A DNA stretch of 39,442 nt, taken from NCBI GenBank assembly GCA_964589485.1, contig CAZPRK010000007.1, positions 1 to 39,442 on the forward strand, written 5' to 3'. The stretch comes from an uncultured Methanosarcinales archaeon (lineage in GTDB: Archaea; Nanobdellota; Nanobdellia; Woesearchaeales; CAYSVS01). Numbering within the stretch: position 1 is the stretch's first letter; each line of letters opens with the position of its first letter. The notes under the pieces are model-generated. The model did no database searches. It was not told where the DNA came from and saw only the letters and a list, made by a program, of their open reading frames with translations. Shown here in pieces: positions 618 to 23,944 of the stretch. The translations under genes and the position numbers were made by a program.

Positions 618-1298
618 GTGAAAAATACAATTATTAAATTAGATAATGTTTGGAAAGTATATAAAATGGGAGATGTAGAAGTTCCTGCATTAAGAGGAAT
701 CAATATTGACATTAAAGAAGGTGAATTTGTTTCAATTATGGGTCCTAGTGGAAGTGGTAAGAGTACAGCAATGAACATGGTTGGAGCATTAGATATTCCA
801 ACTAAAGGTAAGATTTTCCTTGAAAACAATAATATTGCAAATATGGATGAAAGTGACTTAGCACAAATTAGAGGAAAAACAATAGGATTTATATTTCAAC
901 AATTTAATTTAATACAAACTCTTACAGCATTAGAAAATGTAATGCTTCCAATGACGTTTCAAAACATTTCAAAAGAAAAAAGAATTAAACGTGCACAAGA
1001 TTTATTACAAAAAGTAGATCTTTTAGAAAGACAACATCATAAACCAAACGAGTTATCTGGTGGACAACAACAAAGAGTTGCCATTGCAAGAGCATTAGCC
1101 AATAACCCTAAAGTAATACTTGCAGATGAACCTACCGGAAACTTAGATTCAAAGACAGGAATAAATGTAATGCACTTTTTACAAGAACTTAATGAAAAGG
1201 AAGGAAAAACTATTGTTATGGTTACTCATGACAAAAATATATCAAAAAACGCTAAAAGAACCGAAATACTTAAAGATGGGAAGTTCTTAAGAGGTTAA
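618..1298 (+). CDS. ABC transporter ATP-binding protein, LolD/MacB (SalX) family
   Basis: Walker [10 protein letters not shown], signature [15 protein letters not shown], Walker [13 protein letters not shown]-loop VTHD; GTG start. Confidence 0.95.
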
Positions 1299-1302
1299 TA
1301 AA

Positions 1303-2511
1303 ATGAAAAAAACTATATTTTTACTATTAATTGTATTAATGTCATCATACGTATCAGGAGGATTGGTTGATGGTCATAAAATTGAAGCTACGTTAATAAG
1401 CCAAACTGCAGACCCAGTAAAACCTGGTGAATTTGTAGAATTAAGATGGAAAATTGAAAATATAGGTAAAGTATTAAACAATGTTGAGTTTGAACTTCTT
1501 CCAGAGTACCCTTTTAGTTTAACTGATTCAGGCATAAGAAAAGTTGGAAGTTTATATGGTAAGCAACAAGGCGATGATGCTGTTATTCTTTATTATAAAT
1601 TAAAAGTAGATGAAAGAGCAGTTGAAGGTATTAGTAAGGTAAAATTAAAATATAAAACTAATTCTTTAACTTGGACAACATTTCCTGATTTTGATGTTAG
1701 AATTCAAACAGATGATGCAATTTTATCTGTTGTTTCAGTTAACACTATACCTGAAGTGATTGCCCCCGGGGAAAAAGCAAGTATTGAAATTAAGTTAAAA
1801 AATGAAGCTGATTCAGTTTTAAAAAACATAAAATTAAAATGGACAACTTTATCCTTAACTTCGTCCACAACCGAACTACCATTTACTCCAATTAAATCTA
1901 CTAATGAAAAAATATTAAATTCATTACATCCAAAAAATGAAGAAAGTATTACATTTAATGTTGTAGTTAGTCCTGAAGCTGAGGCTAAAGATTATAAAGT
2001 AGAATTATCTCTGTCGTATGAAGATGAACTAGGAGAAAATTTCTCAACAAAAAATATAATGGGAATCATAGTTGGTAAAACTCCAGAATTAAGAATAACT
2101 CTTGAAGAAAGTGAAATTGTTAAACCAAATATGAATGGAGATGTTGGAATTAAAATAGTAAATAAAGGTGTAAGTGACATTAAATTTACAAATATAATTC
2201 TTCAAGAAAACGAATGTTATACAATACTTTCACCACATGAAGTTTATTTAGGAAATATTGACTCAGATGATTATGAAACTGCTGAATTTAAGCTCCATAT
2301 GCAAGGTTGTAATAACTTGCCAATTATTCTATCTTACAAAGATGCAAATAATCAAGAATATATTGAAGAACATACATTAAACATGAAACTATTTTCTGAA
2401 AAAGAAGCAATCAAGTTTGGATTAATTCAAAAAAGTAACAAAGTTGGAATATTATTAATTATTATTATCGTAGTTGGTGGATTTTATCTTTGGAGACGCT
2501 ATAAGAAATGA
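1303..2511 (+). CDS. COG1361 S-layer-domain / Ig-like repeat membrane-anchored protein
   Basis: N-terminal signal peptide, repeated Ig-like motifs (PVKPGEFVELRWKIENIG, IAPGEKASIEIKLKN), C-terminal TM helix plus basic tail; lies between ATPase and MacB permeases as is common in archaea. Confidence 0.8.
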   Translation: MKKTIFLLLIVLMSSYVSGGLVDGHKIEATLISQTADPVKPGEFVELRWKIENIGKVLNNVEFELLPEYPFSLTDSGIRKVGSLYGKQQGDDAVILYYKLKVDERAVEGISKVKLKYKTNSLTWTTFPDFDVRIQTDDAILSVVSVNTIPEVIAPGEKASIEIKLKNEADSVLKNIKLKWTTLSLTSSTTELPFTPIKSTNEKILNSLHPKNEESITFNVVVSPEAEAKDYKVELSLSYEDELGENFSTKNIMGIIVGKTPELRITLEESEIVKPNMNGDVGIKIVNKGVSDIKFTNIILQENECYTILSPHEVYLGNIDSDDYETAEFKLHMQGCNNLPIILSYKDANNQEYIEEHTLNMKLFSEKEAIKFGLIQKSNKVGILLIIIIVVGGFYLWRRYKK

Positions 2512-3734
2512 TTTTAGATTATATTGGCTTAGCCTTCAATAATTTAAGAAGAAGAAGGTTAAGAAGTTGGCTTACTTTAATTGGAATTATAATCGGAATA
2601 GCTGCAGTTATTTCTTTAATTGGTTTAGGTGAAGGACTTAGAGTAGCTATAACTTCTCAGTTCGGATTACTTGGAAATGATGTGCTTAGTGTAAGAGCAT
2701 CCGGAATTGATTTTGCAGGTCCTCCAGGAACTAATACGCCAAATCCTTTATCTGATACATTATATAAAAAACTTGAAAATATTAACGGTATTGAAGCTGC
2801 ATTTAACAGGGATTTAGAAACAGTATTAATGAAATTTAACGATAAAGAAAAAACGGTTATAATAGCTTCATCTCCGGAAGGAAAAAATAGAAAATTATTT
2901 GAAAAAATGTTAAACCTGAAAACAGTTGAAGGAAGGTTACTTAAAGATAATGATAAGAAAAAAGTTCTTATTGGTTATAATTTTGGTAATAAAGATAATT
3001 TTGGTAGATCTATATCTAGTGGAAGTAAAGTTGAAATAAATGGTATAACTTTTGAAGTTGTCGGAAGACTTGAAAAAAAAGGATCTTTTATAATTGATAA
3101 TAATGTAATCACAAATGAAAAAGATATTCTTGAATCATTAGACAAAGACGATGGAACTGCGAATATAATTGCAGTTAAAGTTAAAGATGTTGACAAAATT
3201 AACATTGTCAAAAAAAATATAGAAAAAATATTAAGAAAAGAAAGAAATGTCAAAAAAGGTGAAGAAAATTTTATTGTACAAAGTCCAGTAAATGCAATTG
3301 AAAGTTTAAATTCAACTTTATTTGCAATTCAACTTTTTATTACAATAATCGCAACCATTTCTTTATTAGTTGGTGGAATTGGTATTATGAACACCATGTA
3401 TACATCAGTGCTTGAACGAACAAAGGAAATAGGAATAATGAAAGCTCTCGGAGCTAAGAATTCAGAAATATTCAAAATATTTTTTATCGAGTCTGGGTTT
3501 TTAGGACTTGTTGGAGGGTCTTTAGGTCTAATTATTGGGTTAATATTAGCATTTGGATTTGCATTTATTGGAAGAACTTTTTTAGGAAGTCAATTAATTC
3601 AAGCTCAAGTTACATTAACAGTTATAATAGGTTCAATGTTATTTTCATTTATATTAGGTATTATATTTGGTGTATTGCCAGCAATTCAAGCTTCAAAATT
3701 AATTCCAGTAGATTCATTGAGGAAAGCAAAATGA
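2508..3734 (+). CDS. ABC transporter permease, MacB/FtsX family
   Basis: RRRLRSWLTLIGIIIGI N-terminus, GGIGIMNTMYTSVLERTKEIGIMKALGA, PAIQASKLIPVDSLR; ATGA overlap with upstream gene. Confidence 0.93.
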   Translation: MILDYIGLAFNNLRRRRLRSWLTLIGIIIGIAAVISLIGLGEGLRVAITSQFGLLGNDVLSVRASGIDFAGPPGTNTPNPLSDTLYKKLENINGIEAAFNRDLETVLMKFNDKEKTVIIASSPEGKNRKLFEKMLNLKTVEGRLLKDNDKKKVLIGYNFGNKDNFGRSISSGSKVEINGITFEVVGRLEKKGSFIIDNNVITNEKDILESLDKDDGTANIIAVKVKDVDKINIVKKNIEKILRKERNVKKGEENFIVQSPVNAIESLNSTLFAIQLFITIIATISLLVGGIGIMNTMYTSVLERTKEIGIMKALGAKNSEIFKIFFIESGFLGLVGGSLGLIIGLILAFGFAFIGRTFLGSQLIQAQVTLTVIIGSMLFSFILGIIFGVLPAIQASKLIPVDSLRKAK

Positions 3735-4939
3735 GCGAAGAATTAAAATATGCAATTGGTAACTTGAAAAAAAGAAAATTAAGAACATTCCTTAGCGTTA
3801 TTTCTATTACAATAGGAATTACTTCAATTTTTGCAATAGTTAGCTTTGGATTAGGTTTACAAAGTTATGTTAATGAAATTGCTGCAGAAGCTGGTGTAGA
3901 TAAATTATTTATTCAATCAAAAGGAATAGGCGCTCCTGGTACAGATTTAACTTTTTCATTATCTAAAGAAGATATAAATTTTATAGATAAAATAAAAGGT
4001 GTAAATCAAATTACAGGTGTATATGCTCAAGCAGGTGAGATTGAACATAATAAACAAAAAAGGTTTGTATTTATTATGGGTATTGATACTAAACAACTTG
4101 ATTTTATTGACGAAAGTTTTACTGCTACAGTTGAAAAAGGAAGACATTTAAAAAAAGGAGATATAGATAAAGTTGCCCTAGGTTACAACTATCAATTAAA
4201 TGATAAAATATTTAAAAAGAAAATTAATATTGGAGATAAAGTTAATATTAATTCAAATAAATTTGAAGTCATAGGTTTTTATGAAGAACTTGGAAACCCT
4301 CAAGATGATTCAAACATTTACTTAACAAGGGAATCTTTTGAAGAAATATATCCAGATATTGAAGATAAGTTTGGTTTTCTTATGATTAGAGCAGATAAAA
4401 ATGTTAAAACTGCTGACTTATCTGAAAAAATAACTGAAAAATTTAGAAAACATAAAGATCAAAAAAAAGGAGAGGAAACTTTTTTTGTTCAAACTTTTGA
4501 AGACGCATTAAAAACTTTTGGAGATGTATTAAATGTATTGAATGGAGTTTTATTTTTAATTGCACTAATTTCATTAATAGTTGCAACTGTAAATATAATG
4601 AATACAATGTTTACAGCTGTAATGGAAAGAACAACTGAAATTGGTATAATGAAAAGTATCGGTGCTAAAAATTCAACAATACTAAAAATATTTATGTTCG
4701 AATCAGGAATTATAGGTTTAATAGGAGGAGTTACTGGAATCACAATTGGTTTTATTATTGCTTCTATTGGCGGAAATGCAGCTGCTGCATCTGGATTTTC
4801 TTTATTAAAGCCAATATTCCCTTTTAGTTTAATTTTTGGATGTTTATTATTTGCTTTAATTACCGGAATTATCGCAGGATACTTACCTTCAAGAAAAGCT
4901 TCAAACTTAAAACCAGTAGATGCTTTGAGATACGAATAG
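3731..4939 (+). CDS. ABC transporter permease, MacB/FtsX family (paralog)
   Basis: IMNTMFTAVMERTTEIGIMKSIGA and PSRKASNLKPVDALRYE motifs; ATGA overlap. Confidence 0.93.
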   Translation: MSEELKYAIGNLKKRKLRTFLSVISITIGITSIFAIVSFGLGLQSYVNEIAAEAGVDKLFIQSKGIGAPGTDLTFSLSKEDINFIDKIKGVNQITGVYAQAGEIEHNKQKRFVFIMGIDTKQLDFIDESFTATVEKGRHLKKGDIDKVALGYNYQLNDKIFKKKINIGDKVNINSNKFEVIGFYEELGNPQDDSNIYLTRESFEEIYPDIEDKFGFLMIRADKNVKTADLSEKITEKFRKHKDQKKGEETFFVQTFEDALKTFGDVLNVLNGVLFLIALISLIVATVNIMNTMFTAVMERTTEIGIMKSIGAKNSTILKIFMFESGIIGLIGGVTGITIGFIIASIGGNAAAASGFSLLKPIFPFSLIFGCLLFALITGIIAGYLPSRKASNLKPVDALRYE

Positions 4940-4987
4940 TATCTGAAAGCTATGAACACAAGTGAATATGCTTTGAGATTCGAATAG
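4920..4987. repeat. direct plus inverted repeat (A-A'-A) hairpin element between convergent genes
   Basis: ATGCTTTGAGATACGAATAG (4920-4939) vs ATGCTTTGAGATTCGAATAG (4968-4987), 19/20 identical; intervening GTATCTGAAAGC (4939-4950) is an imperfect inverted copy. Confidence 0.85.
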
Positions 4988-4988
4988 A

Positions 4989-6116
4989 TTAATAAAACTC
5001 TTTTAATAATTTAAATACTTCTGGATTATTTTGTAATTTTCTAATGGCTCTATTTTCTATTTGTCTTATTCTTTCTCTTGTTACTCCTATTTTTTTTCCA
5101 ACTTGTTTTAAACTTCTCGCCCAGCCATCATCTATTCCAAATCTCATATTTAATATGTAAGCTTCTCTTTCACTTAATATACTAAACGCTTCTTTAACTT
5201 TACCTTTTAATGTATTTTGTTCTACAATTTCTTCAATATCTACAACTTCGTCTTCTATAAGTTCATTAGATTCTCCTTCGAAAATTGCATCGAGTGAAGA
5301 TGTTTGTTTTAAATTTAAAAGAAAGTTTATCCGTTCTTGAGGTAATTCAAATTCTTTGGCAATTAACTCTATATCTGGTTCAAAACCATATTCAGTTTGA
5401 AATTCTCCTACAAAATTAGCTATTTTTTTTTGAACTTCTTTTACGTGAACAGGTATTCGTACTAAATTATCAGATTGTAAATAACGTTGTATAGCCTGAT
5501 TGATCCACCAAGTAGCATATGTAGAAAATTTATATCCTAACTTATGTTCAAATTTTGGAATTGCCCTCATCAAACCTAAATTACCTTCTTGAATTAAATC
5601 TAAGAATACCCTATCATCTCTTAGATACTTCTTCGCAATATTTACAACTAATTTCGTATTACATTCTACAAATTTGTATACGGCTTGTTCATCTCCCCTA
5701 TCTACAGCGATAGATAGTTCACGTTCTTGTTCTTTAGTTAGTAAAGAATGACCCTTAATTTCATTTAAATAAAGACTTGTTGGATCGAGCAAATCTACTT
5801 TTCTTTCAAGTAACTCAACTTCATGTAATCTACTAATAGGTAAAACAGTATGATTATTATGATTAACTAAATATTCATAAACTTTACTAAATGTTAAACC
5901 TAATTTCTTTGTTACTTGATCTACGGTTAAATGAGATTTAGATTCAGGTATAGGTTCACCGCTAATTATATGTAAGTGATTTATAATATAAGCTCCTTTA
6001 ATTTCAGGTCCATGTAATTCTTTTAACCTTCTAATATCTTTAGATTCTAATTGACGTACCTTCTCTGTTTCATAAGATCTCAATAGAGATATTCCTGAAT
6101 ATAAATTGGATGTCAT
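4989..6116 (-). CDS. RNA polymerase sigma-70 family factor, RpoD/RpoS-like (regions 1.2-4.2) with N-terminal extension
   Basis: Region 1.2 DPTSLYLNEIKGHSLLTKEQE; region 2 DLIQEGNLGLMRAIPKF..GYKFSTYATWWINQAI; region 3 VRIPVH; region 4 LSEREAYILNMRFG..SLKQVGKKIGVTRERIRQIENRAIRKL. Confidence 0.95.
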   Translation of the reverse strand: MTSNLYSGISLLRSYETEKVRQLESKDIRRLKELHGPEIKGAYIINHLHIISGEPIPESKSHLTVDQVTKKLGLTFSKVYEYLVNHNNHTVLPISRLHEVELLERKVDLLDPTSLYLNEIKGHSLLTKEQERELSIAVDRGDEQAVYKFVECNTKLVVNIAKKYLRDDRVFLDLIQEGNLGLMRAIPKFEHKLGYKFSTYATWWINQAIQRYLQSDNLVRIPVHVKEVQKKIANFVGEFQTEYGFEPDIELIAKEFELPQERINFLLNLKQTSSLDAIFEGESNELIEDEVVDIEEIVEQNTLKGKVKEAFSILSEREAYILNMRFGIDDGWARSLKQVGKKIGVTRERIRQIENRAIRKLQNNPEVFKLLKEFY

Positions 6117-6134
6117 TTTACAAGAAATAACGTA

Positions 6135-6149
6135 TATTTATAAAAAGCT
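6135..6149 (-). promoter_or_regulatory. archaeal TATA-like promoter of sigma gene 1
   Basis: Minus strand AGCTTTTTATAAATA; TTTATAAATA begins 28 nt upstream of the ATG at 6116; no SD. Confidence 0.6.
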
Positions 6150-7082
6150 TTAGTACAAATCTTCTAATTGAGAAGCAAATTTACTTTCTCTTAAATTTTT
6201 TAATCCTCTTTTATACAATTTTCTAGCAATCCCATCAGATCTATTCATTCTTCTACCTATTTCTCTCAAAGATAATTTATCTACACCTAAACCAAAAGCA
6301 TGAGTAATAACAAAATATTCTCTTTCATTTAAAATTTTTAAAGCATCTTTAATAACTTCACTTTTTTTTAGAATTTCAAATGCAGAGTCTACAGTACCCG
6401 GAATAATGTCACCAAGTGAAGAATTTTCACTTATTGGGTCATCTAAAGAATATGAAACTCTACTACTATTAACAACTTCAAATACTTTCTTTGTAGGTAA
6501 GCTTAGTTTTACAGCTATTTCTTCCAAAGAAGGTTCCCTTTTTAATTTTTTTCTTAGAATTTCTTGTTCTCTTTCAATTTTACTTTTATTTTTAATTAAG
6601 CTAACAGGTAACCTAATTAAATAAGCTGTCATTTTAACTGCATCTTGAATTGACTTTCTAAGTTTAGAGTTAGCATAAGTAGAAAATTTATACCCAAGAG
6701 ATTTATCAAAGTCTTCTATTGCTTTATATAATCCAAAAATAGTTTCTTGAAAATAATCAAATAAAGTTAGACTTGTATTATGTCCTTTCTTAATTTCTTT
6801 TTTTGCAAATTGCATACCTAATCTTAGGTTTGAAAACAATATTGTTTGAAATGCATCAGGGTCTCCGTTTTCATATTGTTCAAAAAGAGATATTTCTTGT
6901 TCAGGTGTAAGAACTTCATATTTTTGTAAAATAGAAACATAATCTTGGAAATTATAATTTGAATCAGTATTTTCTAAAACTTTACTAGATAAATTAGCAG
7001 ATAAATCTAACATTCCTCTTACTTCTTGACCTAATACCTGAGGAAGATCATATAATACTCCTATTTCTGAAGAACCTCTCAT
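6150..7082 (-). CDS. divergent sigma-70 family factor
   Basis: YEVLTPEQEISLF (1.2), SNLRLGMQFAKK (2.1), FDKSLGYKFSTYA (2.3), LIRLPV..LKREPSLEEIAVKL..SLDDPI (3), LNEREYFVITHAFGL..LSLREIG (4). Confidence 0.88.
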   Translation of the reverse strand: MRGSSEIGVLYDLPQVLGQEVRGMLDLSANLSSKVLENTDSNYNFQDYVSILQKYEVLTPEQEISLFEQYENGDPDAFQTILFSNLRLGMQFAKKEIKKGHNTSLTLFDYFQETIFGLYKAIEDFDKSLGYKFSTYANSKLRKSIQDAVKMTAYLIRLPVSLIKNKSKIEREQEILRKKLKREPSLEEIAVKLSLPTKKVFEVVNSSRVSYSLDDPISENSSLGDIIPGTVDSAFEILKKSEVIKDALKILNEREYFVITHAFGLGVDKLSLREIGRRMNRSDGIARKLYKRGLKNLRESKFASQLEDLY

Positions 7083-7102: not shown

Positions 7103-7120
7103 AATTTATAAGATTTTCTT
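7103..7120 (-). promoter_or_regulatory. archaeal BRE-TATA-like promoter of sigma gene 2
   Basis: Minus strand AAGAAAAT-CTTATAAA; box begins 30 nt upstream of the ATG at 7082. Confidence 0.6.
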
Positions 7121-7192: not shown

Positions 7193-8065
7193 ATGAATGC
7201 ATTATCCATCAATAATTTAGAAAAAACATACTCCAATGGAATGAAAGCTCTAAAAGGCATTTCTTTTGATGTAGAAGAAGGAGATTTTTTCGCATTACTT
7301 GGTCCAAATGGAGCAGGAAAAACTACAACTATAGGCATAATTACTAGTTTAGTAAATAAAACAAATGGAAGTTTAAAAGTTTTTGATAAAATTAAACAAA
7401 CTGAAATTAAAAAAATGATTGGAGTTGTACCTCAAGAGTTTAATTTCAACATATTCGAAAAAGTTATAGATATTATTGTTACACAAGCTGGATATTATAA
7501 TGTACCAAAAAAAGTTGCATTAAAAAGAACTAAACCATTATTGGAAACTTTAGGATTATGGGATAAAAGAAACCATAAAGCAATTACATTATCTGGTGGA
7601 TTAAAAAGAAGATTAATGATTGTAAGAGCTTTAATCCATAGACCTAAATTATTGATATTAGATGAACCTACAGCAGGCGTTGATGTTGAACTTAGATATA
7701 GTATGTGGGAATTTCTTAAAAAAATGAATAAAAATGGAACTACAATTATCTTAACAACTCACTATTTAGAAGAAGCTGAGCAGTTGTGCAATAAAATTGC
7801 AATTATAGATAAAGGAATTATCGTAAAAAATACAACAATGAAAGAATTACTTAAAACTGTAGATAAGGAAACTTATCTTATAGAAACAAAAAAGCCAGTA
7901 AAGAAAAAAGAGTACTTTGATTTAAATAAAATAGATACTAATACTTATGAAGTAAGTTTAAACAATAAAGATTTAAACAAATTTTTCAAAGATAATGAAG
8001 TAGTCAATATAAGAAACAAAGTTAACAAATTAGAAGGTTTATTTATGCAATTGGTGAAAAAATGA
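7193..8065 (+). CDS. ABC-2 type transporter ATP-binding protein (YadG-like)
   Basis: GPNGAGKTT, LSGGLKRRLMIVRAL, LILDEPTAGVD, TTHYLEEAE. Confidence 0.93.
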   Translation: MNALSINNLEKTYSNGMKALKGISFDVEEGDFFALLGPNGAGKTTTIGIITSLVNKTNGSLKVFDKIKQTEIKKMIGVVPQEFNFNIFEKVIDIIVTQAGYYNVPKKVALKRTKPLLETLGLWDKRNHKAITLSGGLKRRLMIVRALIHRPKLLILDEPTAGVDVELRYSMWEFLKKMNKNGTTIILTTHYLEEAEQLCNKIAIIDKGIIVKNTTMKELLKTVDKETYLIETKKPVKKKEYFDLNKIDTNTYEVSLNNKDLNKFFKDNEVVNIRNKVNKLEGLFMQLVKK

Positions 8066-8817
8066 TAGATTTAAAGACATTAGTAAATAGAGAGATTGAA
8101 AGATTTATGAGAATATGGACTCAAACTTTACTTCCTAGCGTAATAACAACTGCTTTATATTTTCTTATATTTGGTAAATTTATAGGAAACCAAATAAATG
8201 ATATTTCTGGGTTCAGTTACATGGCATTTATCGCTCCAGGGTTAATTATGTTAGGCGTTATAATGAACTCATATCAAAATGTATCAAGTTCATTTTTTTT
8301 AGCAAAATTTCAAAAAAGTATTGAAGAATTATTAGTTTCTCCAATTTCAAATAATAAAATAATATTTGGATTTATGTTAGGAGGAATGTTAAGAGGAATT
8401 TTTGTCGGAATCTTAATCATGTTAGTTTCATTATTTTTCATAGATCTTCAAGTATATAGTTATTCAGTTGTTTTAATTTATTTAATTTTAACTTCAGCAT
8501 TATTTTCACTTGCAGGGTTAATTAACGGAATATATGCAAATAATTTTGATGAAATTATGGTAGTTCCAACTTTTGTTTTAACTCCATTAATTTATTTAGG
8601 AGGGATATTTTATTCATTAGACGCTTTATCTGGATTTTGGCAAGGAGTTTCTAAATTAAATCCTATTTTATATTTAATCAATGGATTTAGGTTTGGTTTT
8701 TTAGGTATATCTGATATTAATATATTTGTTTCATTTGGAACTTTAGTTATATTTGTAATTATATTCTATGGAATAACTTATTACTTAATCGATAAAGGTA
8801 TTAGAATTAAGAGTTGA
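8062..8817 (+). CDS. ABC-2 type transporter permease (YadH-like)
   Basis: REIERFMRIWTQTLLP, IEELLVSP, NPILYLINGFRFGFLG; six TM segments. Confidence 0.9.
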   Translation: MIDLKTLVNREIERFMRIWTQTLLPSVITTALYFLIFGKFIGNQINDISGFSYMAFIAPGLIMLGVIMNSYQNVSSSFFLAKFQKSIEELLVSPISNNKIIFGFMLGGMLRGIFVGILIMLVSLFFIDLQVYSYSVVLIYLILTSALFSLAGLINGIYANNFDEIMVVPTFVLTPLIYLGGIFYSLDALSGFWQGVSKLNPILYLINGFRFGFLGISDINIFVSFGTLVIFVIIFYGITYYLIDKGIRIKS

Positions 8818-12128: not shown

Positions 12129-12662
12129 CTATTTCCACTTAATGCTACAACCCATACTAGGTTTAAACCAATCAAGAATTTCTTTTCCTTCCATTAAAAA
12201 AGTAATTGCATCCTTTAAACTTTCTTCATTAACTCCATCGTTTGGATTCATAGAATCATTTATTCTCCCATGATAAACTAATTTATGTTCTTTATCTAAT
12301 AAATATGCTTCAGGTGTACATACAGCTCCTAAGGCTTTAGCTACTTCTTGTGTTTCATCTATTAAATAATATTTTAATCCTAATTCATGTGCTAGTTCTA
12401 TCATTTGTTCCTTACCATCTTCAGGATATTCTTCCGCATCATTTGAGTTTATGCAAATAAAAGGAATATCTAATGATTGCAATTCTTTAATTATATCAAG
12501 TTTAGATCTAACATATGGACAATGATTACACATAACTAATATAACAACAGCTTGTTCATTAAAGTCAGATAAACTAATTGTAGTATCATCATAATTTTCT
12601 AATGTAAAAGAAGGAACTTTATCTCCTTTTTGTAAAGTTTGTTCCGATTTAAGTAAAACCAT
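12129..12662 (-). CDS. AhpC/TSA-like thioredoxin family protein
   Basis: MCNHCPYV, INSNDAEEYPED, AVCTPE, YHGRIND, PSMGCSIKWK. Confidence 0.9.
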   Translation of the reverse strand: MVLLKSEQTLQKGDKVPSFTLENYDDTTISLSDFNEQAVVILVMCNHCPYVRSKLDIIKELQSLDIPFICINSNDAEEYPEDGKEQMIELAHELGLKYYLIDETQEVAKALGAVCTPEAYLLDKEHKLVYHGRINDSMNPNDGVNEESLKDAITFLMEGKEILDWFKPSMGCSIKWK

Positions 12663-12688
12663 AAAAAGAAAAAGTAATTAATTAATAT

Positions 12689-13078
12689 TTAATAGTTTTG
12701 ATTTGAATTAGTTTCAATTTGATTTAAAGTATCTCTACAATTAATTAAATCAGTATACAAACTTAAAGTTAAATCTTCAACCATTGATTTTTTTAACATA
12801 ATAGGATATCCAAAAGGATTATGTTCAATCATATTTCTTGCAATAATTTCTATTCCACTATCTTCAAAGTCAGTTATTCTTGTAGCAATATTTATACCGG
12901 CAATGTAAACATCAGGTTTAAAATCAACAATCCCAGGAACTACAATTCTTGGTTTATCTTGAAGTATATTATCGTAATGTATTTGATCCCATGTAGTTAA
13001 TCTGTTTACAGATTTAATTAAACTATTTCCTTTTGGTGTTAATGTTACTATTCCTGATTCATATTTTGTATTAAACAT
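12689..13078 (-). CDS. hypothetical protein (129 aa)
   Basis: ORF with own upstream TTTTTTAAAC box; no motif. Confidence 0.55.
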   Translation of the reverse strand: MFNTKYESGIVTLTPKGNSLIKSVNRLTTWDQIHYDNILQDKPRIVVPGIVDFKPDVYIAGINIATRITDFEDSGIEIIARNMIEHNPFGYPIMLKKSMVEDLTLSLYTDLINCRDTLNQIETNSNQNY

Positions 13079-16258: not shown

Positions 16259-16762
16259 ATGATCAAAAAAATAATTATTTTAACTTTTTTTATATTTATA
16301 ATAGGTTGTACTTCAAATGAAATTAATACTGAATCTACAATTAATTGGCAAGATATAGAATTAAAAGATATTAACTCTCAAGAAACTTTTACAATTGGCG
16401 AATTTAAAAAACCAGTATTAATAGAAAGTTTTGCAGTATGGTGTCCTACATGCACAAGACAACAAAATGAACTAAAAAAATTACACAAAGAAGATGATTC
16501 TTTTATTTCAATTACATTAGACACTGACCCAAATGAAGATGAAGCATTAGTTAAAGAACATACAAATAAACATGGTTTTGATTGGAGGTATGCAATTTCA
16601 CCAAAAGAATTAACTCAAGAGTTAGTTAACATTTTCGGAATTAATTTTGTTAATGCTCCTTCCGCTCCAATTGGGTTATTATGTCCTGGAAAAAAACCAA
16701 AACTATTACAAACTGGTTTCAAATCAAAAGATGAATTAAAAGAGGCATTAGTAACATGTTAA
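16259..16762 (+). CDS. TlpA/ResA-like thioredoxin lipoprotein
   Basis: Signal peptide with IIGC lipobox-like motif; FAVWCPTC active site. Confidence 0.85.
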   Translation: MIKKIIILTFFIFIIGCTSNEINTESTINWQDIELKDINSQETFTIGEFKKPVLIESFAVWCPTCTRQQNELKKLHKEDDSFISITLDTDPNEDEALVKEHTNKHGFDWRYAISPKELTQELVNIFGINFVNAPSAPIGLLCPGKKPKLLQTGFKSKDELKEALVTC

Positions 16763-17433
16763 CAAACTTATGGATTTCTTTAATAGCTGGAGTTTTAGCT
16801 CCATTAGGTGCAGTTTGTGTTCTTCCACTATATCCAGGGTTTTTAGCTTATCTATCAAATAAATTAAAAGGAAAAGTTGACAAGAAAACTTACATTCTAC
16901 TTAGTTTAAATGTTACTTTAGGAATTGTAGTTTCTATGTTCATTGTTGGTTTAATTTTTTCTAAATTTTTACAAACATCTTTAACTAATGCAATTGGAAT
17001 TATTTCACCTATAGCTTTTAGCATTTTAGGTATAATTAGTATATTTTTATTATTCAATAAAGATTTCAGTACATTACTACCTAAAGCAAATGTTCCTATT
17101 AATCAAAACCCTTTATGGAGTTCCTTTTTATTTGGTTTATTCTTTGGAGCAATTGTTCTTCCATGTAATCCAGGAACATTAACAGTATTATTTGCAGTTT
17201 CTACTACAACAACAAATTTCATATTAAATTTACTTAACTTTGTGTTTTTTGGAATTGGAATGTCATTGCCATTAATATTATTCTCAGTGTTATCTTCAAA
17301 TAAAAGTCAAGAAGTTATTTCTTGGTTAACTAAACATAAAAGTGCTATAAATAGAATTACTGGATTAATTATGTTAAGCATTTCATTATATTATTTAATA
17401 TTTATATTTGAAATATTCAAAAGTTTATTTTAA
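16756..17433 (+). CDS. ccdA: CcdA/DsbD transmembrane electron transporter
   Basis: VCVLPLYP and VLPCNPG redox Cys motifs, six TM helices, coupled to the thioredoxin gene. Confidence 0.8.
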   Translation: MLTNLWISLIAGVLAPLGAVCVLPLYPGFLAYLSNKLKGKVDKKTYILLSLNVTLGIVVSMFIVGLIFSKFLQTSLTNAIGIISPIAFSILGIISIFLLFNKDFSTLLPKANVPINQNPLWSSFLFGLFFGAIVLPCNPGTLTVLFAVSTTTTNFILNLLNFVFFGIGMSLPLILFSVLSSNKSQEVISWLTKHKSAINRITGLIMLSISLYYLIFIFEIFKSLF

Positions 17434-21860: not shown

Positions 21861-23042
21861 TTATTTATTTAACTCAATAACTTTCTTAACTTCTTCAACA
21901 AATAATTTAGCTTCTTCTTCAGTGTTGTATAAATACAATGAAGCTCTAACACTTCCTGGCAAATTACGTTTATTAAACCAACTATGGCAACAGTGTGCTC
22001 CACTTCGTGTCATAATATTAGCACTTTTATCTAATATTCTAGAAACATGATGAGGATCCATCCCTTTAATATTGAAAGAAAATATTCCCCCTCTTAATGC
22101 TGGATCTTTTGGACCAATTAATTCTACTTCAGGTAAACCATCTGTAATAATTTTATTAAGTTTTATTTCATGTTTATTTATTTTATTCAACCCAACTTTT
22201 CTTAAATATTTACAAGCTTCACCTAATGCAATTATCCCAGCATAATCTTGTAAACCCGCTTCAAATTTCATAGGTAAACCTTCTTCCTTATAATCAGAAT
22301 AAGTAGAATCTATTACAGTTTCACCTCCAACAATAAATTGGGGTAACTTTTCTAATAACTCTTCTTTTCCATATAAAACACCAGTTCCAGTAGGCCCCAA
22401 CATTTTATGTCCTGAAAAACATAAATAGTCAACATCTAATGTTTTTACATCAACTACTTTATGTGGAACTGCTTGTGCTGCATCTACTAAAACTTTAACA
22501 CCTTTAGAATGTGCAAATTCAACAATTTCTTTAATTGGATTAGTAACGCCATCTAAATTAGATGTATAAACTATTGAAACTAATTTGGTTTTTTCAGTAA
22601 AAGCTTTCTTGAAATTATCCATATTAAAAGTATTATCTTCGTTACTATCAACTACAATTACTTTAACTCCCTTCTTAATCCAAGGAATTAAATTAGAATT
22701 ATGTTCTTTATCACTAATAATTACTTCATCTCCTTTATTAAATGAATTAGCAACTATATTGATTCCTTCAGTTGTATTTCTTGTAAAAATAATTTCTTTT
22801 TCACTTTTAGCATTGATTAACTTTTTAACTTGATTTCTCGCATTTAAAACTTCTTCTTCAACTTTTGTTGCAAATTGATGTGCACTTCTTCCTGCACATG
22901 CTGGATATTCATAATAATATTCATTTAATTTATCTATAACTTGCCTTGGTTTTAATGACATACAAGCAGAATCAAAATATATTCCTTTTTTAATTGAAGG
23001 AAAATCCTCCCTTACTTTATTAAAGTCAACTCCAAAAATCAT
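21861..23042 (-). CDS. sufS: cysteine desulfurase, SufS/class V aminotransferase
   Basis: YFDSA, FTRNTTEGIN, EHNSN, VDAAQ, FSGHKMLGPTGTG, RSGAHC, RASLYLYN. Confidence 0.9.
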   Translation of the reverse strand: MIFGVDFNKVREDFPSIKKGIYFDSACMSLKPRQVIDKLNEYYYEYPACAGRSAHQFATKVEEEVLNARNQVKKLINAKSEKEIIFTRNTTEGINIVANSFNKGDEVIISDKEHNSNLIPWIKKGVKVIVVDSNEDNTFNMDNFKKAFTEKTKLVSIVYTSNLDGVTNPIKEIVEFAHSKGVKVLVDAAQAVPHKVVDVKTLDVDYLCFSGHKMLGPTGTGVLYGKEELLEKLPQFIVGGETVIDSTYSDYKEEGLPMKFEAGLQDYAGIIALGEACKYLRKVGLNKINKHEIKLNKIITDGLPEVELIGPKDPALRGGIFSFNIKGMDPHHVSRILDKSANIMTRSGAHCCHSWFNKRNLPGSVRASLYLYNTEEEAKLFVEEVKKVIELNK

Positions 23043-23944
23043 TTTTTCAACTCCTTGTTAATTATTTTCTTAAAAGTTTTGAATGGTTTTGGCCCTACTA
23101 TCTTTTGATCACCAATAAAAAAAGTAGGTGTTCCTGGAACTCCCGCCTTTCTTCCCATTAAAGAATCTTCATCAACTTCAGTATAATCTTGTTTACTGAA
23201 ACATTCCCAAAATTGAGTTTCATTCAAGCCAATATTTTTTGCAATTTGTTTATATGTGTCATTTCCTAAAAATTTTTGATAAGTAAATAATTGTTTATGG
23301 TATTCATGATACATTCCTTGCTCAAATGCACAATTAGAAGCTAGTGCAGATTCTCTACTTCCATTATGCCATGGTATTAAAAAAGTTTTAAACTGAAAAT
23401 TAACCCTTCCTTCATAATAATCTATAACTTCTTGAACTATTGGTTCAGCCTTTTTTGTATAAGGGCAAGCAAAACATCCAAATTGAATTATTGTTAATTC
23501 TGCATCTTTTGGTCCTAGTATTGGATCATTATTTTCTAATTTAGGTGGTTCTCTTTCTGATTCAGGAATAGTTTCAACTTCACTTGCTCCAGTACCTGGG
23601 TCAAAAATACAAAACCCTACTTCATCAGGAGTATTACAATTACCATACTGAGAATAATTATACAAACCAATCGCACTTCCATATGCACTCCAAATAAATA
23701 AAAACATCACAATCCAAGATAATAGTTTATAATTTTTATATGTAAACCTTGCTAACTTAGGTGAATATCTTAAAAAAATTCCAGTAATATCTGCTTTAAT
23801 TTTATCATCTAAACCAGAATTACATTTTCTTAATGTAATTGTTTTAAATAAACAATCTAATGCATCTTTAGTTAATTTTCTATACTTAACACTAAAAATA
23901 CCAAAAAATGCAAATATTGGAATTGCCAACAAACATAACGCCAT
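23039..23944 (-). CDS. membrane-anchored DsbA/Thioredoxin_4-like oxidoreductase
   Basis: DPILGPKDAELTIIQFGCFACPYT, GVPGTPTFFIG (cis-Pro loop); N-terminal TM region with extra Cys. Confidence 0.82.
   Translation of the reverse strand: MALCLLAIPIFAFFGIFSVKYRKLTKDALDCLFKTITLRKCNSGLDDKIKADITGIFLRYSPKLARFTYKNYKLLSWIVMFLFIWSAYGSAIGLYNYSQYGNCNTPDEVGFCIFDPGTGASEVETIPESEREPPKLENNDPILGPKDAELTIIQFGCFACPYTKKAEPIVQEVIDYYEGRVNFQFKTFLIPWHNGSRESALASNCAFEQGMYHEYHKQLFTYQKFLGNDTYKQIAKNIGLNETQFWECFSKQDYTEVDEDSLMGRKAGVPGTPTFFIGDQKIVGPKPFKTFKKIINKELKK

Follow-up and report, generated by a model that had tools for sequence, protein, structure and literature searches.

A sigma-70 gene pair with divergent motifs

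The DNA analysed here (the window) is a stretch of 39,442 nucleotides (GenBank CAZPRK010000007.1), which represents the entire contig C7 of a 1.16 Mb assembly (23 contigs, 99.9% complete) and contains two adjoining minus-strand open reading frames (ORFs) coding for proteins of the sigma-70 family. One of them, at 6150-7082 and named sigX, specifies a divergent protein of 310 amino acids in which a 1.2-like region and regions 2, 3 and 4 were recognized from the ORF, Pfam matches and a structural model. The other, at 4989-6116 and directly downstream of sigX, specifies a canonical RpoD-like protein of 375 amino acids (ORF and Pfam/NCBIfam matches) and is called the neighbour below. The two proteins share 29% identity over 256 alignment columns.

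According to the original prediction, which was made from the sequence of the window, sigX differs from the neighbour in the motifs of regions 2.2, 2.3-2.4 and 4.2; all three variants were indeed found where that prediction had placed them. The neighbour carries DLIQEGNLGL, KFSTYATWWINQAI and IGVTRERIRQIENR, with TRERIRQIE intact. In alignment, region 2.2 of sigX reads DYFQETIFGL (6729-6758, minus strand; residues 109-118; consensus DLIQEGNxGL), which corresponds to L110Y, I111F and G114T relative to positions conserved at 80% or more. Region 2.3-2.4 reads KFSTYANSKLRKSI (6648-6689, minus strand; residues 132-145): the KFSTYA portion is retained, the tryptophan pair (WW) is replaced by SK and the glutamine by lysine. 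Region 4.2 reads MNRSDGIARKLYKR (6207-6248, minus strand; residues 279-292; consensus xGxTRERIRQIExx), so that RER.RQ has become DGI.RK and only one consensus arginine, R287, is left. A 4-residue insertion is also present between helices 2.1 and 2.2. In bacterial primary sigma factors the WW wedge and the glutamine act at the -10 element, RER.RQ acts at the -35 element and helix 2.2 takes part in core binding.

Departures from the consensus were counted at 62 columns, each at least 80% conserved across 59 other homologs, and amount to 16 for sigX and 9 for the neighbour. Those of sigX concentrate in regions 2.1, 2.2, 2.4 and 4.1-4.2, and the protein agrees with the consensus in region 1.2, in the KFSTYA stretch and in region 3; five of the nine departures of the neighbour fall in region 3 (columns 156, 176, 180, 182 and 188). 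The departure of sigX is more than a chance fluctuation. Among the 268 nearest aligned database homologs, WW is kept in 231, a single tryptophan in 32 and one sequence is gapped at this place; the four that possess neither tryptophan are sigX, its ortholog P0002, P0213 and P0252.

In E. coli sigma-70 numbering, the residues retained in sigX are D403, Q406, E407, G411, L412, F419, Y425, K426, F427, Y430, R436 and R588, and the replacements are L404Y, I405F, G408T, N409I, W433S, W434K, Q437K, T440Q, R441D, R584D, E585G, R586I and Q589K. The aromatic residues which hold the flipped -11 adenine are retained. By contrast, the wedge formed by the tryptophans, the residues that read position -12 and the majority of those contacting the -35 element have been replaced, for the most part by different polar or basic amino acids. 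The pattern of exchanges, as read from the alignment, is one of changed specificity rather than of erosion.

Selection on sigX

The sole ortholog of sigX in the protein database, P0002, is encoded on a metagenome contig of 1,237 bp (L033) where the gene order is the same as here, with an ABC-2 ATPase gene lying divergently upstream and an RpoD-like gene starting downstream. The two proteins are 79% identical, and in both lineages the reading frame is open and has a length of 310 amino acids. Nei-Gojobori estimates for this single pair gave dN 0.129 and dS 0.431 (dN/dS 0.30), and changes are less frequent at non-synonymous than at synonymous sites (Fisher p 9e-11, tested against equal rates); a ratio near 1, which had been named beforehand as the mark of simple decay, was therefore not observed. 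Along sigX the ratio is 0.28 for residues 1-45, 0.09 for residues 46-76, 0.28 for residues 77-155, 0.39 for residues 156-235 and 0.33 for residues 236-310.

The unusual residues themselves are also kept. All three motifs are exactly conserved in the ortholog (38 of 38 residues), with six synonymous and no non-synonymous differences; DYFQETIFGL shows no nucleotide difference at all, KFSTYANSKLRKSI shows two and MNRSDGIARKLYKR four. Fourteen of the 16 departures from the consensus are shared, with the same residue. Conservation extends to the N-terminal tail (residues 1-42; 6957-7082, minus strand), a portion of low model confidence in which 33 of 42 residues (79%) were identical to P0002 by a hand count on the translations. 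We conclude that purifying selection maintains sigX and that the gene is not in decay. The retention of the odd motifs under such selection also supports the idea, put forward in the original prediction, that the pair has split its functions.

No further ortholog of sigX was found when genome contigs were searched with P0002, and metagenome contigs gave L033 only. Two genomes of the same genus, G001 (96% complete) and G002 (93% complete), possess one sigma gene each, the products of which are 28% and 26% identical to sigX, respectively, and are not orthologous to it; the sigma gene of G001 sits at a contig end. As for the neighbour, no relative above 47% identity is listed besides its own database entry, and a pattern scan of genome contigs detected six bacterial loci only (40-43% identity). 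The locus, in whole or in part, is present in six DNA sequencing-run rows from two marine/seawater studies, and no RNA run containing it was among those listed.

Family membership, predicted fold and relation to known sigma factors

Three Pfam domains were matched by sigX above cut-off and in the order PF04542, PF04539 and PF04545: Sigma70_r2 (30.6 bits, cut-off 24), Sigma70_r3 (50 bits, cut-off 25.3) and Sigma70_r4 (41.9 bits, cut-off 24.1), although the Sigma70_r2 match spans just profile positions 25-66 of 71. The neighbour exceeds the cut-offs for r1_2, r2 and r4 but scores 19.3 bits on r3, a weak match that does not reach the cut-off. The AlphaFold2 model of sigX has a mean pLDDT of 84.8, with residues 45-310 confident and values below 50 at residues 1-18 and 20-42. 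Its best Foldseek matches are SigA and SigS chains (E 4e-15 to 1e-13, TM about 0.55), and the best phmmer sequence matches are likewise of SigA/SigS type (E 1e-32 to 6e-32). Domain content and fold together place sigX within the sigma-70 family. The activity which defines this family is binding of a bacterial core RNA polymerase followed by promoter-specific initiation; no genes for such a core enzyme were found in the genome (see below).

The scores of sigX fall well under the NCBIfam cut-offs of the RpoD and RpoS models (135.6 versus 572 for NF006666, 130 versus 354 for TIGR02393 and 138.9 versus 384.5 for TIGR02997) and under those of the group 3 models (82.8 versus 234.35 for TIGR02980 and 71 versus 189.6 for TIGR02479), and the hallmarks of group 1, WW with glutamine in region 2.4 and the RER.RQ helix in region 4.2, are absent from sigX. 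By these cut-offs, sigX lies outside the RpoD, RpoS, SigB/F/G and FliA subfamilies. Because the highest scores are nevertheless those against the RpoD/RpoS type, sigX is an RpoD-derived alternative form.

The best sequence and fold matches are group 1/2 factors of the SigA/RpoD and RpoS type (PDB chains 7l7b_F, 8x6f_E, 7ckq_F and 5ipl_F). Regions 1.2, 2, 3 and 4 follow in the same order in these proteins and in sigX, which also keeps KFSTYA, region 3 and the helix-turn-helix of sigma-4. However, sigX differs from them in the exchanges and the insertion described above and in that no region 1.1 was found in it, and the cell that encodes it has no bacterial core enzyme (see below). Group 3 factors (SigB/F/G, FliA/WhiG) are three-domain proteins without the WW pair which read other promoters. 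In logic they are closest to sigX, but sigX scores lower on their models (82.8 and 71 bits) than on the RpoD/RpoS models (130-139 bits). As a bare sequence feature, sigX is an ordinary case of alternative-sigma-like divergence.

Defence-system and phage libraries returned generic sigma homology only. The MzaA protein of the MZA anti-phage system is matched by sigX solely along its C-terminal sigma core (positions 396-665 of 683; PADLOC), the NCBIfam MzaA model gives 108.7 bits against a cut-off of 800, and no MZA partner gene was matched among the neighbouring genes tested; sigX is consequently not an MzaA. Both sigma proteins of the pair match the phage sigma family phrog_351 (for sigX, E 1.9e-47 over residues 44-300). 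Phage sigma genes resemble sigX in residing in a genome without a bacterial RNA polymerase of its own; they differ in that there are no phage genes around the sigma locus, and the match is limited to the generic sigma core of a 928-position profile.

An archaeal genome with archaeal promoters

A bacterial host had been assumed in the original prediction, and in this respect it has to be corrected. The source genome is that of a DPANN archaeon of the Woesearchaeota type. It encodes a TATA-binding protein (TBP) and two transcription factor B (TFB) genes, within one of which falls the third Sigma70_r4 match of the genome. A profile search of the genome returned exactly one Rpb1_1 match and one Rpb2_6 match, and no match to the C-terminal domain of the bacterial alpha subunit (alpha-CTD). 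The genome thus has a single archaeal RNA polymerase and no detectable bacterial core enzyme. The tetranucleotide profile of C7 correlates with that of the rest of the genome at r = 0.997, and genes of the contig include a wyosine-formation radical-SAM gene (Wyosine_form) and a DSHCT helicase gene, both of which are archaeal/eukaryotic in type. The sigma-70 homolog therefore resides on a genuinely archaeal contig in a genuinely archaeal genome.

In a search of relatives comprising 41 genomes (the source genome included), four weak alpha-CTD matches were obtained, all in ORFs of unrelated length; for three of the four, no sigma gene had been detected in the genome concerned with sigX as query. 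One match (RNA_pol_A_CTD, 34.6 bits; L106, G020:C24:959-1132) is in a 424-aa open frame; the contig measures 1,982 bp, and its genome also has a sigma gene. The match could be due to contamination or could be another borrowed bacterial transcription part.

Promoter elements were analysed upstream of 958 ORFs with a minimum length of 120 codons. The start positions of TATA-like hexamers peak at -30, -29 and -28 from the ATG (200, 165 and 169 counts, respectively; mostly 10-30 elsewhere upstream), and 510 of the 958 genes display a TATA-like word between -33 and -20. It appears that this genome uses mostly leaderless mRNAs with archaeal promoter architecture. Both sigma genes have an element of this kind at a position matching the genome-wide peak: TTATAAAT at -29 to -22 from the sigX ATG (7104-7111, minus strand) and TTTATAAATA at -28 to -19 from the ATG of the RpoD-like gene (6135-6144, minus strand), the latter within the 33-bp spacer between the two genes. 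These elements are conserved in L033 (TTTTTATAA for the RpoD-like gene). Since each gene has a TATA box of its own, sigX and its neighbour are probably transcribed separately, from archaeal promoters and by the archaeal machinery.

The database entry for the RpoD-like protein (P0269) has 364 residues instead of the 375 counted from the ATG at 6116. The longer form agrees with the TATA box at -28 to -19, and its first residues are conserved (MTSNLYSGIS here, MEQNLYSGIS in L033).

Sigma genes across the order

The Sigma70_r2 profile matched in 89 of the 251 genomes of the order, with 1-5 matches in each; five of these genomes (G183, G113, G244, G133 and G122) are unpublished and all of them match, the figure without them being 84 of 246. 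Motifs were tabulated for 49 distinct sigma genes from 28 genomes, picked as best matches or visible tandem arrays and not as a random sample. The WW pair is present in 26 of the 49, a single tryptophan in 16 and none in 7, and an RER.RQ-like helix is retained in 24. The loss of WW in sigX had been interpreted as a melting defect, but it is not evidence for one by itself given that seven sigma genes of this table are also without both tryptophans. Bacterial group 3 and group 4 sigmas, moreover, function without this pair.

Tandem pairs, triples or larger sets occur in 13 of the 28 genomes. Arrays were seen in G040, G193, G078, G168, G187, G073, G172, G125, G207, G209, G184 and the source genome, and in G124 two copies face opposite ways, separated by about 1.6 kb. 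Copies from the same genome cluster together (SH-aLRT of at least 95) in G124, G193, G209, G021 and G168. Region 1.1 is present in some copies of the order. The single sigma proteins of the two same-genus genomes are 34% and 30% identical to the neighbour, and the first 330 residues of the RNA polymerase subunit Rpo1N are 86-88% identical; judging by these identities, the sigma genes of the order turn over quickly, far faster than RNA polymerase.

In a tree of the family, the stem leading to sigX measures 1.98 changes per site and the tips are short (0.11 and 0.15). Numerous long branches give the tree a star-like shape, support is below 80 on 32 of its 54 inner branches, and no sister group of sigX was resolved in it. 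A tree constrained to place sigX, P0002 and the neighbour in one clade was 21.9 log-likelihood units above the tree from a quick free search (p-AU 0.807). On the scale of the order, sigX is probably one more product of recurrent local duplication and divergence.

Several other members of the family deserve mention. Four tandem sigma genes in G040 (G040:C3:16402-20250; L008, L023, L029 and L032) grade from canonical (697 and 381 amino acids, region 1.1) to strongly degenerate (QLRSKLFWHAKQAI with TTLDDMMKIIKRGL). One member of a tandem pair in G207 (L056; G207:C10, ORF 2743-4050, minus strand) reads GFRPYAEMRIRGTILDYL and TESRASQLHSAAL, motifs which resemble the FliA/sigma-28 type and would be odd in an archaeon. 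Pfam scans of 15 long sigma ORFs (597-1,763 amino acids) gave sigma regions only above cut-off and no informative fusion partner; below cut-off, a weak helix-turn-helix was seen in two and an unrelated DUF7198 in one. The very long ones (763-1,763 amino acids; L092 (G114:C5, ORF 1750-7038, plus strand), L094, L095, L096, L097, L098 and L107) have N-terminal extensions of about 180-1,450 residues with no Pfam match. The long ORF of G114 contains extra partial sigma-like stretches, and that of G193:C9 shows weak MarR_2, PF0610-like and HTH_17 matches below cut-off.

Possible roles of sigX

The explanation that we favour, at a probability of about one half, is that sigX is a specificity-switched sigma-70 paralog kept by selection in a DPANN archaeon. 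An RpoD-like ancestor would itself have been acquired from bacteria, and sigX would most likely have been generated by tandem duplication of the neighbour or of the ancestor of the neighbour. A burst of change would then have replaced the residues used for opening and reading the -10 element (WW and glutamine), the RER.RQ residues that read the -35 element and some of those in helix 2.2, which contributes to core binding, after which the protein would have been held nearly constant. Presumably the archaeal machinery transcribes the gene into a leaderless mRNA, starting from a TATA box of the standard kind. Its product would be a sequence-specific DNA-recognition or regulatory protein inside the archaeal cell, using the intact sigma-4 helix-turn-helix together with the sigma-2 domain at sites differing from those of the neighbour; docking on the archaeal RNA polymerase and action without any polymerase are both compatible with this proposal. 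That sigX reads DNA unlike the targets of the neighbour and regulates inside the archaeal cell is, in our estimation, an even bet. Of the options in the original prediction, a factor with new specificity is thus the one that we prefer.

A number of observations weigh against this explanation. The sigma-70 consensus (TTGACA, 16-18 bases, TATAAT) is not enriched upstream of the genes of this genome: sequences with up to two mismatches were found for 47 genes versus 68.3 +/- 9.1 in 20 dinucleotide shuffles, and with up to three mismatches for 430 genes versus 451 +/- 14; neither TATAAT nor TTGACA shows a positional peak. Even the canonical neighbour is therefore without visible targets at home. 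For sigX, no binding site, regulon or partner was identified. An all-against-all BLAST of the ORFs flanking the sigma genes of the 28 genomes revealed no family, other than sigma itself, in more than three genomes. The clamp coiled-coil of Rpo1N is invariant in 29 aligned genomes, with or without sigma genes, so that it carries no apparent sign of adaptation to sigma, albeit docking remains compatible with its sequence. Prediction of a complex between residues 40-165 of sigX and the first 330 residues of Rpo1N, which include this coiled-coil, gave run scores of 0.00, 0.53 and 0.00 with alignments as input, which speaks neither for nor against docking. An origin of sigX by local tandem duplication is allowed and even favoured by the constrained tree but falls short of proof because the tree is largely unresolved. 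Finally, selection was measured on a single pair because there is one ortholog only, and 0.30 is a relaxed dN/dS value where transcription factors are concerned.

One alternative is that sigX acts as a decoy or competitor, which would bind the partner of the neighbour without sharing its DNA recognition and so damp its activity. The two genes adjoin, 33 bp apart and with separate promoters, and sigX, although its DNA-reading residues have been lost, retains the overall fold from sigma-2 through sigma-4 and, in helix 2.2, the residues D, Q, E and GL, all of which is in line with such a role. The form of this idea in the original prediction, a dominant-negative sequesterer of RNA polymerase, is contradicted by the genome: no bacterial core enzyme was found, therefore a decoy of this kind would have no target inside its own cell. 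In addition, helices 2.1 and 2.2, the presumed partner surface, are altered at six conserved columns, and the residues that replace the DNA-facing ones are basic (K, R) and strictly conserved in the ortholog, hence a better fit to a new DNA specificity than to loss of binding. We consider a decoy unlikely. Decay of a duplicate without function is highly improbable. It could be invoked because sigX scores lower on Sigma70_r2 than any other family member in the survey of the order (33.2 bits, partial), is off consensus at 16 of 62 conserved columns and has been seen in one lineage and one metagenome contig only. This possibility is largely refuted by the open frame of equal length in both lineages, by the dN/dS of 0.30 (p 9e-11 versus neutrality) and by motif differences that are only synonymous, and it also sits badly with the confident predicted fold and the conserved TATA box.

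A further alternative is that the sigma proteins act in trans, in the manner of phage factors, their target being the RNA polymerase of bacteria that serve as host or prey, with sigX providing a second specificity. In agreement with this, this genome has neither a bacterial core enzyme nor enriched sigma-70 promoters, the bacterial consensus of regions 2.2, 2.4 and 4.2 is preserved in the canonical neighbour as well as in canonical copies from other families of the order (some also have region 1.1), sigma genes diverge far faster than RNA polymerase (34% and 30% versus 86-88% for Rpo1N), and both proteins match phrog_351, though this reflects general sigma homology only. However, neither Pfam scans nor the structural model suggested a signal peptide or membrane anchor (a dedicated predictor was not run), secretion genes are not linked to sigma genes across the 28 genomes, and sigX is devoid of the residues needed on standard bacterial promoters. 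Moreover, every characterized DPANN host that we know of is an archaeon. An effector of this type is accordingly quite unlikely. The more elaborate proposition that the two sigmas, one canonical and one divergent, make up a kit with two specificities, delivered into a bacterial partner and redirecting its RNA polymerase as phages do, is decidedly unlikely; if it were true, an arms race between host and symbiont would lie behind the fast turnover of sigma genes and their radiation in tandem arrays. The probability left by the specificity-switched paralog and these three alternatives goes to something else.

Sigma-70 genes in DPANN archaea

Castelle et al. 2021 (Front Microbiol 12:660052, PMC8204110) describe sigma-70 genes (fam00359) as prevalent in Woesearchaeota, exclude mis-binning, find no anti-sigma factors and call the mechanism unclear; their Table S3 lists the family in 39% of 196 Woesearchaeota, 38% of 90 Pacearchaeota and 38% of 37 Aenigmarchaeota. 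Our literature search found no treatment of DPANN sigma-70 genes beyond that study, and the accessible portion of PMC7289017 does not mention archaeal sigma genes. The locus analysed here resembles the published cases in that bacterial-type sigma-70 genes reside in Woesearchaeota-type genomes holding TBP and TFB, and it adds tandem pairs, the state of the promoter-reading residues and selection on a divergent copy, which are not described in the accessible text of PMC8204110. sigX belongs to this known phenomenon and is a candidate member of the fam00359 cluster itself.

Since 2021, archaea that encode bacterial sigma factors but no bacterial RNA polymerase have posed the question of what these factors do. 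The present locus constitutes a natural matched pair, where one copy has all the bacterial promoter-reading residues and the other has them swapped and is nonetheless under purifying selection. With both copies behind archaeal promoters, the pair could serve to tell apart initiation factors, free-standing regulators and tools aimed at another organism.

Other genes of the contig

On each side of the sigma pair lies an ABC transporter operon on the plus strand. The first (618-4939) is a MacB-type set composed of an ATPase, a 402-aa ORF without Pfam match and two MacB_PCD/FtsX permeases; the second (7193-8817) comprises an ABC-2 type ATPase and a permease. Further along the contig are genes related to thiol redox chemistry (12129-13078, 16259-17433 and 23039-23944), which code for an AhpC/Redoxin protein, a second Redoxin, a DsbD-type membrane protein and a DSBA/Thioredoxin_4 protein. 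The same contig also encodes a DUF3179 protein and a sodium symporter of the SNF family.

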